Shown in pieces: positions 14,215 through 16,273 of a stretch of DNA of 64,000 nt. The stretch lies in IMG/VR virus record IMGVR_UViG_3300042892_004373, positions 9,061 to 73,060 of that record; one strand, given 5' to 3'. The stretch's first letter is position 1. The number at the start of each line of letters is the position of its first letter. The DNA is from a virus. The notes below the pieces were generated by a model. It ran no database searches, was not told where the DNA came from, and worked only from the letters and a program-made list of their open reading frames with translations. Position numbers and translations under genes: made by a program.

Positions 14215-14405
14215 TAAGTGAGCTTAGCCGCGATTTTGTTTTATCCCATCATTTATCTTTGCATCAACCCGTTCTCATAGGGAAACCGACACCCTCGAAT
14301 TGTTTGACTTGCTACTTCCTTAGTACAATCGACATTAGTCTCCTAAGTTAGGTTTTGTAGTCGCGAACTTCCTCTGTTTCCAGCGATAGGTTCTCTGCTT
14401 ACTTA
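14215..14405 (-). ncRNA. rnpB: Minimal RNase P RNA (191 nt), S-domain largely absent
   Basis: P1 UAAGUAAGC/GCUCACUUA, P2 CCUAUC/GAUGGG, P3 CUG-GAAA-CAG, P4 AGU(U)CGCGA/UCGCGGCU with bulged U, P5 CUAC/GUAG, conserved GAGGAAG, GCAAG, AGAUAAAU, ACAAAA motifs. Confidence 0.85.
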
Positions 14406-15311
14406 TTAAAATTGGTGTGTACCTTGATTTACGTTAAACACGAAGATACCTTCGTCATACCACATATCTACTACACTTAATCTATCATCATAAACACAAA
14501 GTAAGTTATAATTTGGTTTAATATGATTTTCGTATATTTCTTTTTTAATTAAAGTATCTTTTCTATAATCATCTTTTGGTCTCATATACATTTCATCGAA
14601 TTCAATACCGTGAAAGTCTAACCATTCCTCGGTAACTTCTCGACAAACTTCATCACGACCAGTTACGATAATTACTTTTCTACCTTTATCTTTATGAAAT
14701 TGTAATTGTTCTGATACAATTTCGTTCAAATCATCTTTATAAACTTGCATCCAATCGAATGGACCTCTACGACCCATAAGTGCAAGTGTACCATCGATGT
14801 CAAATATAACTGCACCTTGTTTAGTGGAGTTAAAATCTGGGATCAAATGAGGTCTTGTCATTTTTTTGACTGGTTGAAAGTCAAAAGAATCCATTAAAAT
14901 TTTATATTCTTTATACATTCTATTGATAACAACAGGACCTACAGACTTGTCTCTTTGTCTGTCTCGTTCTATCGCCTTGTCTTTTGATATATCAAAAACT
15001 TGATAGTCTATATCGGCACTAAACTTAAACTTCTCGATAATGTTTTGGATATATTTATCTTTTAGATTAGTATTATCAACGATAACATTCATTTTTTTAA
15101 GTAATGATTGCTCAATTGTTGCATCAACTAATTCATTTATTATATTCTCAACTTTATTTTCTACAACTCCAGAGTTTTTTAACATTTCTCTAAAGTCGTC
15201 TCTACTTACTCTAGTCCAATTATCATTTGTTTTCACAAAATCTTTGGCCCATGTAGATTTGCCGGAGGCAGGTACTCCGATAAGTATTTTTATTTTTGTA
15301 TTTGTCTTCAT
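14406..15311 (-). CDS. pseT: Polynucleotide 5'-kinase/3'-phosphatase (T4 PseT-like)
   Basis: GVPASGKST + SRDDFR kinase; FDIDGTL HAD phosphatase, YDDR. Confidence 0.92.
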   Translation of the reverse strand: MKTNTKIKILIGVPASGKSTWAKDFVKTNDNWTRVSRDDFREMLKNSGVVENKVENIINELVDATIEQSLLKKMNVIVDNTNLKDKYIQNIIEKFKFSADIDYQVFDISKDKAIERDRQRDKSVGPVVINRMYKEYKILMDSFDFQPVKKMTRPHLIPDFNSTKQGAVIFDIDGTLALMGRRGPFDWMQVYKDDLNEIVSEQLQFHKDKGRKVIIVTGRDEVCREVTEEWLDFHGIEFDEMYMRPKDDYRKDTLIKKEIYENHIKPNYNLLCVYDDRLSVVDMWYDEGIFVFNVNQGTHQF

Positions 15312-15373
15312 GATTTTATAATTTATACAAATGTAATCATTTAAAATTAAAAAAACCACTCAAAGTGGTTTTT

Positions 15374-15583
15374 TTATCCTCCGTATGCATCGATTATGTA
15401 ACCATGTTTAACTCTAAAGTTAATTCTATTAGGATTAGCATCCATTTCTAGCATTTTTGATTGACCATTTTCTTCTGTTATTCTTACTATAAATCCACCA
15501 TCTTTAGCGTATTGTGTAGCTTCTTCGATGGTTTTACCCTCATATTCTCCTCTTGTAATTAAACCAAAATTTCTTAATGCCAT
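15374..15583 (-). CDS. Small protein, peptidase inhibitor I78-like
   Basis: MDANPNRINF..G.II..GG resembles the I78/potato-inhibitor motif. Confidence 0.45.
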   Translation of the reverse strand: MALRNFGLITRGEYEGKTIEEATQYAKDGGFIVRITEENGQSKMLEMDANPNRINFRVKHGYIIDAYGG

Positions 15584-15628
15584 AATTTTTATTATTTTTT
15601 CTATTATACAAAAAAAGATAAACAAAGT

Positions 15629-16273
15629 TTATCTTTTTATTTCGGCTTTCTTCCAATTTCTAGTCCAGTGAACATCCGTGCTAACGTGGCCTTTTCTTAC
15701 CCATTTCATTACATTATCTGCGAAGTCGTCATTGTGAAACATTCCTGCAGTTCTTACTACGATACCTTCTCTTTGTCCACCTAATTCAGATGGTTTACTA
15801 ACTAAATCTTCTACAATTTGTTGTAATTCTTTCACGGAGTTTACTACACCTTTGAATAAAACAGGTACAGTTGGTATATCTAATAGGTAAGAATACTCTT
15901 CTACTTTTTCCCAAGGGATCCAAATATCATTATCTCTGATACCAAAGATATAAAAGTAAGATTCTAGATTAGAGTATTCGATAGAGTGAATACCTTCCAT
16001 ATTTTCTCCGAATAAGAAAACACCGTCTCCTAATTCATCTTCAACTGATAGTTTGTGTAATTGTCTAACTTCTCTTGACCAAGCAGATGTAGTAAAAGTT
16101 GCGTGACTTCTTGCATAAACTCCTTCATCTGTCATTCCACAATTTTCACCGTCTAATTTCTCAGTAATAACAATTTCAGTACCTAATAATGATTCTACAT
16201 TATCAGATATTCTATCATCATTTGTTGATCCTGGTGACCATGGCAGGTGGTAGGTTCGATTATACTTACTCAT
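15629..16273 (-). CDS. RNA ligase (Rnl2-like family)
   Basis: RTYHLPWSPG, TEKLDGEN motif I, GEN, EGIVVR, KWVR. Confidence 0.88.
   Translation of the reverse strand: MSKYNRTYHLPWSPGSTNDDRISDNVESLLGTEIVITEKLDGENCGMTDEGVYARSHATFTTSAWSREVRQLHKLSVEDELGDGVFLFGENMEGIHSIEYSNLESYFYIFGIRDNDIWIPWEKVEEYSYLLDIPTVPVLFKGVVNSVKELQQIVEDLVSKPSELGGQREGIVVRTAGMFHNDDFADNVMKWVRKGHVSTDVHWTRNWKKAEIKR

Follow-up and report, generated by a model that had tools for sequence, protein, structure and literature searches.

A putative minimal RNase P RNA encoded by large and huge phages

Introduction

RNase P RNA is regarded as a housekeeping ribozyme of cells and organelles. Here we ask whether a phage may carry a version of its own. 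The locus that raises this question lies in a 64,000-nt stretch of viral DNA (the window), which comprises bases 9061-73060 of the 73,060-base IMG/VR record IMGVR_UViG_3300042892_004373 (CheckV completeness 26%). Directly behind the PNKP gene of the window, a first-pass annotation had placed an RNase P RNA of 191 nt lacking the specificity domain (S-domain), at about 14405..14215. Our analysis upholds the RNA and its minus-strand orientation and revises its limits to 14406..14210 (197 nt). On the comparative evidence presented below, this element appears to be a minimal phage RNase P RNA derived from a type-A rnpB and is likely the catalytic subunit for pre-tRNA 5' maturation, a reading to which we assign a probability of about 0.72. 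A full-text literature search, whose coverage stopped short of supplements and subscription journals, found no description of a phage- or virus-encoded RNase P RNA, and in the excerpted text of a 2024 RNase P review phages appear only as substrate sources.

Results

A catalytic domain with a single-stem remnant of the S-domain

The RNA and the PNKP stop codon (TAA, 14408..14406) share one base, the last of the codon and the first of P1, and the RNA occupies the upstream four-fifths of the 238-nt gap between PNKP and the PHO4 gene. The start directly after the PNK stop, on the same strand as PNK and the RNA ligase, is therefore as the first-pass annotation had described it. Helices P1-P5, P15 and the P4 with its bulged U, all recognised at that stage, are present, with 9+3 pairs in P1, and P6, P16 and P17 were found in addition (Table 1). 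The proposed absences are likewise borne out, as the P5 strands are separated by 41 nt (about 50 nt had been estimated to replace the S-domain) and only 12 nt lie between the 3' strands of P15 and P2, where P18 would be expected. The J5/15 GCAA is present, and CGGGUU (L15) occupies the type-A CCA-binding GGU site. As judged from the comparisons that follow, all helices and junctions of the catalytic domain are kept, while the S-domain of ~150 nt has been reduced to one short stem and P18 has been lost.

Helices P1-P5 and P15-P17, the P6 pseudoknot and the bulged-U P4 have the same order and identity in the RNA as in bacterial type A (RF00010), and the J5/15 GCAA, L15 GGU, J18/2 AGAUrAAUG and J2/4 ACArAA motifs are likewise shared. 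The stretch of the window from J18/2 to P4 (14258..14226) matches the RF00010 consensus AGAugAAUG...ACAGAACCCGGCUUA, and the consensus has CGGGUagg at the place of the L15 CGGGUU. Unlike type A, the phage RNA is virus-encoded, lies under the Rfam gathering score, has no P7-P14 S-domain (41 nt vs 173 nt in the full-size RNA of locus L019, described below) and does not keep the CR-II/CR-III region. The window copy additionally lacks P18 and has a U-G pair and one extra pair in P4 (GUUCGCG/CGCGGCU).

Related RNAs in large and huge phages

A blastn search against deposited phage genomes identified the same RNA in the huge-phage genomes LR745206 (634,780 bp) and LR756501/LR756503 (735,411 bp). A 44-nt match to Flavobacterium phage FL-1 covered only the A/T-rich 3' flank and was taken as irrelevant. 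Scanning IMG/VR with a degenerate pattern that runs from J18/2 through the P4 3' strand gave 75 stretches. A covariance model (R1) was built from a structure-blind alignment of 20 homologs, with P4 and P6 left out. R1 matches 66 of 78 sources, made up of 63 of the 75 IMG/VR loci, the window and two relatives, L001 and L002. The R1 matches include LR745206 and LR756501. The window RNA scores 218.6 bits with R1, but as a member of the training set. Because part of the 3' strand had been predefined in the first pattern, a second scan of IMG/VR used a 5' pattern only (CR-I to J5/15); its 62 stretches contained 34 new loci, all of which are matched by R1 at E<=1.6e-16. In total the family comprises 97 IMG/VR loci and two curated huge-phage genomes, with ~70 distinct sequences that span a GC content from 0.31 to 0.61 and keep all helices via compensatory changes. 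Each of five complete terminal-repeat phage genomes (172-519 kb) contains exactly one copy, and the same five genomes yielded no match to RF00010 (E<=0.01) or to PF00825 (RnpA).

The 3' pattern was also run on 185,579 prokaryote species, each represented by a single genome, and gave 88 matching stretches, 80 of which were obtained as loci. The RNA is present in four of these 80 (79.6-154.2 bits), all of them contigs of metagenome-assembled genomes (MAGs) of 3,053 to 44,987 bases; the other 14 of the 18 R1 matches at E<=0.01 were weak and partial (15.5-28.4 bits) and were not counted. The presence of the RNA in only four of the 80 loci, all on MAG contigs, argues that the mini form is not a cellular rnpB. 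These contigs (L082, L115, L138 and L156) are labelled Roizmanbacteria, Deltaproteobacteria, Bacteroidales and Acidimicrobiia. They are probably phage contigs swept into bins.

Helices maintained by compensatory changes

We evaluated the proposed structure through covariation. Between the window and L001, the helices P4, P2, P5, P6, P7 and P15 differ by paired changes. In a structure-blind MAFFT alignment of 20 compact homologs, 88.8% of cells are paired, compared with 31.5-45.2% in a slid control in which the 3' partners were moved by 1-3 columns. In this alignment 44 of 57 pairs are changed on both sides, and none of 500 shuffles reaches any of five measures. The model-based alignment of 57 distinct rows gave 92.9% paired cells (34.9-46.6% when slid) with compensatory changes at 50 of 57 pairs. 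P4, which is absent from the search model, is 99.4% paired across 46 rows and three of its seven pairs covary, while P6, likewise absent from the covariance model, is 87.9% paired with changes on both sides at all five pairs. P1 (83.9% paired), P2 (96.9%), P3 (98.1%) and P5 (98.6%) stand in canonical order around P4 and all have compensatory changes, as do P15 (89.1%), P16 (92.7%) and P17 (95.8%). The P7-like stem of the remnant is 94.9% paired, with four of five pairs covarying. In 24 sequences from the second scan, whose pattern covered 5' elements and left the 3' strand free, the 3' strand of P4 changes in step with its 5' partner, with the variants CGCGAC/UCGCGG, CGGGAC/UCCCGG, CGAGAC/UCUCGG and CGAUAC/UAUCGG. 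In the motifs of L023 and L072, the base at the P4 bulge position reads C.

Conservation of single letters follows the same outline. CR-I lies outside the first search pattern, and in 46 distinct full-length rows its GAG, AA and UCG are invariant and its remaining positions are at least 90% conserved. GCAA, AGAU-AAUG and ACA--AU--CGGCUA vary little or not at all in these rows of the first set, where the 3' motifs were partly fixed by how the set was gathered. Collectively, the comparative results establish a large RNA family that is under purifying selection in large and huge phages.

Descent from a type-A RNA and reduction of the S-domain

The Rfam covariance-model check advised in the first-pass annotation gave a divided answer. 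A search of 801 bases (13900-14700) in E-value mode aligned the archaeal RNase P model RF00373 over its full length (positions 1-288) to minus-strand 14400..14216, with a score of 25.3 bits and an E-value of 3.1e-5; in this alignment the S-domain block shrinks from 14+14+89 to 11+11+14 positions. At the gathering threshold, a search of the whole window returned no RNase P and only GOLLD and three tRNAs.

Two viral contigs of 204 and 360 kb (L019 and L061) carry a full-size type-A RNase P RNA that matches RF00010 at 168.3 bits against a gathering score of 100. This full-size RNA shares a lineage-specific form of P4, GAAGUUCG / AAUCCCGGCUA, with the mini RNAs, and its alignment to the RF00010 consensus displays the P4 that it has in common with the mini forms as GAAGUUCGGG with AAUCCCGGCUA. 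The distance between the P5 strands is 173 nt in L019, 128 nt in L024, 81-102 nt in six others and 40-70 nt in the rest. The shared P4 of the full-size L019 RNA and this series of lengths indicate that the mini RNA arose by reduction of a type-A rnpB and is not of archaeal origin, despite its best Rfam alignment being to RF00373. Some relatives, e.g. L002 and L050 (41 nt), have one or two hairpins at the P18 position. The series from 173 through 81-128 to 40-70 nt would record a stepwise loss of the S-domain in viruses, which, taken jointly with the virus-specific class outlined in the Discussion, we consider a little better than an even bet.

The remnant stem encloses a strongly conserved asymmetric internal loop (14341-14342 and 14324-14330). 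On its 5' side, GGAG is found as G in 45, G in 40, A in 44 and G in 44 of 46 rows. The 3' side follows C-G-U-U-W-N-Y-A-C, with C in 42, G in 41, U in 31, U in 37, W in 42, Y in 38, A in 45 and C in 45 of the 46. The U-W-N-Y-A portion has the U...A ends of a T-loop, and we infer that it may form one. According to the accessible part of a 2026 study (PMC13462272), archaeal type T RNAs also keep the catalytic domain with P15-17/P6 and reduce the S-domain to about one stem, and in the model of that study the lone stem bears one T-loop (UAAAA) positioned at the elbow of the tRNA. If the phage loop is a T-loop, the enzyme would not be blind to the elbow, which makes the 'elbow-independent' RNase P of the first-pass annotation doubtful given the conserved GGAG / CGUUWNYAC loop. 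The phage RNA differs from type T in its bacterial descent, as its motifs follow RF00010 even though RF00373 aligns best. Type T works with Pop5, Rpp30, Rpp29 and L7Ae, for which no search was made in the phages. On these sequence comparisons, the likeness to archaeal type T is convergence and not membership.

Genomic context

The RNA is commonly embedded among tRNA genes. Loci with tRNAs (Rfam, ARAGORN) account for 32 of the 45 distinct RNAs of the first set, and every tRNA lies on the strand of the RNA. A tRNA is located within 300 nt in 22 of the 45 and ends no more than 30 nt upstream in 11. The second set gave similar numbers, with tRNAs in 23 of 26 loci, within 300 nt in 18 of 26, and with 383 of 384 tRNAs on the same strand. 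No tRNA was found in ~94 kb around 12 chance pattern loci without the RNA, which served as a control. In L004/L006/L037, L068, L024 and L003, tRNAs abut the RNA on both sides. The tRNAs surrounding the family are canonical and score 45-74 bits. A tmRNA gene occurs near the mini RNA in L059 (10189-10574, minus) and in L072 (199-606, minus), one of them permuted or alpha-type.

T4 Pnk and Rnl repair anticodon-cleaved tRNA, and the window has a similar arrangement with PNKP and RNA ligase genes directly upstream of the RNA on the same strand. The first-pass annotation had tied the RNA to this module. Over 77 loci, however, PNKP was found by tblastn in L071, L026 and L067 and nowhere else, and the same three loci gave the only Rnl matches. 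The adjacency therefore reduces to local synteny among near-identical relatives (L026/L071, L067), with ordinary tRNA arrays elsewhere, and in this respect the family departs from T4-type repair. RNA ligase is reported to be over-represented in genomes with HARP, an RNase P made of protein only (PMC12153264, 2025); in the accessible portion of that paper the ligase is tied to HARP and not to an RNA-based enzyme.

The first-pass annotation had further coupled the RNA to nearby tRNA-like RNAs with expanded D-loops. The window has four such genes. Their acceptor stems are the same (GGUCUGU/ACAGACU), their T arms almost so, and each D-loop holds a hairpin insert, while their 'anticodon' arms differ greatly in length. 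One is reported by ARAGORN as a tRNA whose anticodon has 4 bases, and two score 21.5-26.5 bits with the Rfam tRNA model. Beyond the window, the D-loop-expanded RNAs were detected in its close relatives L027 and L071 and nowhere else, whereas the RNase P RNA family extends much further, so the odd RNAs cannot explain the reduced form. Across the family, with its ~100 loci of canonical tRNAs, the coupling finds no support.

The other features of the window include the 83-aa ORF upstream of PNKP, which is conserved in relatives (Table 1) and for which Pfam and PHROG searches returned no family match. The island formed by the GluQRS-like ORF, the ligase, PNKP, tRNA-Met, the tRNA-like genes and GOLLD can be read as fitting a theme of tRNA supply and repair.

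Expression and protein partner

An exact 34-nt block precedes tRNA-like genes three times (0 expected by chance) and contains a Bacteroidota-type promoter, TTTG-N19-TAnnTTTG. Allowing a spacer of N17-21, we counted 12 copies of this motif in the window where 4.26 were expected, and 11 of the 12 lie on the minus strand; one of 100 shuffles reaches 12. This enrichment suggests a Bacteroidota host, and a scan for sigma-70 promoters in the window remained at chance level (23 vs 20.9 expected). At least the three cluster genes that follow the 34-nt block would therefore have 5' leaders. No Bacteroidota-type promoter was found just upstream of the RNase P RNA, which points to processing from the PNKP transcript.

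Over 14251-14396, a metatranscriptome contig of 151 nt is identical to the window, and a contig of a relative spans 14223-14641, which includes the RNA and the end of PNKP. In run X1, contigs lie over the PHO4 gene and the far end of PNKP and none over the RNA; the contigs of run X9 belong to relatives, and 84% of them run on in unlike sequence. We take the contigs as a weak hint that the RNA is transcribed.

RnpA-family ORFs were detected in two of 15 relatives' records, LR745206, where the ORF is far from the mini RNA gene, and the 476-kb record of L021.

Table 1. Features of the window and of related loci. Positions without a locus name are those of the window.
Feature	Position	Strand	Remarks
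Predicted minimal RNase P RNA	14406..14210	minus	197 nt; type-A catalytic domain and single-stem S-domain remnant
P1a	14406-14398 / 14218-14210	minus	from sequence, script-checked
P1b GAG / CUC	14395-14393 / 14222-14220	minus	from sequence, script-checked
P2	14390-14385 / 14250-14245	minus	from sequence, script-checked
P3, GAAA loop	14383-14374	minus	from sequence, script-checked
CR-I and P4 5' strand, GAGGAAGUUCGCG	14362..14373	minus	bulged U at 14367
P4	14369-14362 (bulged U 14367) / 14232-14226	minus	AG[U]UCGCG / CGCGGCU
P5	14360-14357 / 14315-14312	minus	from sequence, script-checked
P6 pseudoknot	AAACC 14355-14351 / GGUUU 14287-14283	minus	3' strand within P17 loop
S-domain remnant	14347..14319	minus	5-bp P7-like stem, internal loop GGAG / CGAUUGUAC, 3-bp hairpin
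P7-like stem	14347-14343 / 14323-14319	minus	encloses inner hairpin 14340-14331
P15-P16-P17 arm	14308..14263	minus	L15 CGGGUU at 14270-14265
P15	14308-14304 / 14267-14263	minus	from sequence, script-checked
P16	14300-14297 / 14274-14271	minus	from sequence, script-checked
P17	14294-14292 / 14282-14280	minus	from sequence, script-checked
J18/2 AGAUAAAUG, P2 3' strand, J2/4 ACAAAAU, P4 3' strand CGCGGCU	14258..14226	minus	
GluQRS-like truncated class I synthetase ORF	17661..16819	minus	tRNA-synt_1c 7.4e-45
RNA ligase, 214 aa	16273..15629	minus	PF09414 1e-27; phrog_24030 'RNA ligase' 2.3e-41
83-aa ORF	15625..15374	minus	78-90% identity (tblastn) in L027, L071, L026, L067
PNKP, 317 aa	15359..14406	minus	HAD_PNKP 2.4e-42, AAA_33 5.2e-16, phrog_505 4.3e-83
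PHO4-family phosphate transporter	14167..13103	minus	
ClpB-like double AAA+ ATPase	17823-19877	plus	
Four tRNA-like genes	11076-11172, 11204-11292, 11467-11582, 11849-11953	minus	2.3-3.3 kb from the RNA
Further tRNA-like gene, long extra arm	12022-12108	minus	27.9 bits vs tRNA gathering score 29
Exact 34-nt block, three copies before tRNA-like genes	11647-11680, 11965-11998, 12115-12148	minus	0 expected by chance
GOLLD RNA, full-length, beside tRNA/tRNA-like cluster	10031-10437	minus	RF02032, 324 bits, E 4.9e-92
Full-size type-A RNase P RNA	L019 7348-7705; L061 2738-3095	plus; minus	RF00010 match
Endonuclease insertions	L038 12917-13537 (also L043); L057 1575-2210 (also L074, L075); L046 8704-9114 (also L045)		
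RnpA-family ORFs	L078 = LR745206 76444-76752; L079 = G001 440379-440669		PF00825, E about 2e-13

Discussion

Bacterial catalytic domains without an S-domain cleave pre-tRNA in vitro, less efficiently than the complete RNA, and are aided by the protein subunit. Those engineered C-domain or 'mini' RNase P RNAs are laboratory constructs, in contrast to the natural conserved family described here with its structured remnant stem. The phage RNA would remove 5' leaders from pre-tRNAs, above all the phage's own, and cleavage would proceed by the usual metal-ion mechanism at P4/J5-15. The protein partner would most likely be host RnpA, or phage RnpA where it is encoded; the host protein is suggested by the retained protein-contacting junctions and by the lack of rnpA in most such phages. 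Within tRNA arrays, the 5' end of the RNA may be made by 3' processing of the upstream tRNA and its 3' end by RNase P cleavage at the downstream tRNA, while in the window the RNA may form the 3' tail of the PNKP transcript. A ribozyme supplied alongside dozens of tRNA genes could keep maturation from limiting infection. Precedent for phage-borne ribozymes beside tRNAs comes from the theta (HDV-like) ribozymes (PMC10879173, as described in the accessible part of the article). These are small and self-cleaving in cis, whereas the phage RNA is an RNase P homolog predicted to act in trans. We lean slightly towards a more specific picture, in which the family constitutes an undescribed, virus-specific class of RNase P RNA, a bacterial counterpart of type T that would use host RnpA, sense the elbow through one T-loop and be self-released from arrays.

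Several observations weigh against assigning the RNA this function. The RF00373 score of 25.3 falls well short of the gathering threshold (84) and is, alone, a lead only, so that the decisive support is comparative. L001 and L002 have no RNase P match in Rfam even at E<=1, and at the gathering threshold 13 of 15 relatives' loci have none. Folding energy gives no support either, with a z-score of +1.10 for the minimum free energy (MFE) and 178 of 200 shuffles folding equally well or better; the proposed nested structure, at -22.7 kcal/mol, is 13 kcal/mol above the MFE of -36.1, and covariation was relied on instead. Two pairs of the window copy are non-canonical, an A-C mismatch in P16 and a U-U in P1, and conservation of L15 across the family reaches only the level of 75% or above. 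CCA is not encoded after the tRNA-Met gene (11455..11383) or after any of the four tRNA-like genes nearby. From metatranscriptome contigs, neither the strand nor the ends of an RNA can be read, nor whether it was truly transcribed. No rnpA was found in the window's 73-kb record (26% complete) or in 13 of the 15 relatives' records, and the protein partner is therefore assumed.

Interrupted copies add to this side of the balance. In L067, whose PNKP is 95% identical, a 3.8-kb insert (5125-8925) separates the two parts of the gene at J5/7; it is an Rrf2-nrdD-nrdG cassette, with genes for an Rrf2 regulator, NrdD and a radical-SAM protein resembling NrdG as well as small ORFs. In three lineages the P15-P18 region is split by homing-endonuclease ORFs on the strand of the RNA, of the GIY-YIG, GIY-YIG with NUMOD3, and HNH with NUMOD4 types; searches of L038 and L057 at the Rfam gathering threshold found no group I or II intron family. 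In such loci the RNA is either dispensable or working in pieces. The interruptions, together with the two non-canonical pairs of the window copy, are what would be expected of a captured host rnpB that lost its S-domain and decays without function. This explanation is nonetheless very improbable and, on the sequence evidence, close to refuted by covariation, as the distinct sequences keep every helix across their whole GC range, each of the five complete genomes has its single copy, and only four of the 80 prokaryote-scan loci, all MAG contigs of 3-45 kb, contain the RNA. Even the two halves of the L067 gene are nearly unchanged from the window, the 5' half being the same over the shared stretch and the 3' half a few letters off.

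Two further explanations accept a function and place it elsewhere. An RNase P freed from elbow recognition might serve the D-loop-expanded tRNA-like RNAs (11076-11953), or further phage RNAs such as GOLLD, which host RNase P would handle poorly. The missing canonical S-domain, the location of the four genes on the same strand 2.3-3.3 kb away and the 5' leaders expected for the three cluster genes behind the 34-nt promoter block are consistent with this proposal. We judge it unlikely, since the odd RNAs occur only in the window, L027 and L071, the ~100 loci of the RNA are full of canonical tRNAs, and the conserved remnant loop could still contact the elbow, as the accessible text on type T models it. 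Alternatively, the RNA might be no enzyme and instead act as a decoy that binds host RnpA through P2-P4, J18/2 and J2/4 and so titrates or redirects host RNase P. The protein-side junctions are indeed the most conserved parts, rnpA is missing from most relatives' records, and C-domain-only RNAs are poor catalysts in vitro. A decoy would have no need, however, of the substrate-side elements P15-P17, P6, J5/15 GCAA, L15 GGU and the bulged-U P4, which are kept with compensatory changes, and a place inside the phage's own tRNA arrays argues for aiding tRNA maturation and not for blocking it. A decoy role is thus distinctly improbable.

Read as a reduced type-A RNase P RNA that would mature tRNA 5' ends, the RNA adds a structural form to a familiar ribozyme, in a host where it was not expected. 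At ~195-230 nt and without the canonical S-domain, this natural bacterial-type RNase P RNA is, to our knowledge, below the size of the cellular bacterial rnpB genes known so far. Rfam thresholds do not capture the family, and current phage annotation pipelines consequently miss it. Its ~70 natural variants make testable the need for the S-domain in tRNA recognition, the replacement of two interleaved T-loops by a single loop and compensation by the protein subunit. If the proposed function is true, enzyme and tRNA substrates would be co-transcribed, and the ribozyme would be excised by the tRNA punctuation that it itself catalyses. A conserved, single-copy viral version would add tRNA 5' maturation to the translation parts of huge phages, which include tRNAs, synthetases and tmRNA.

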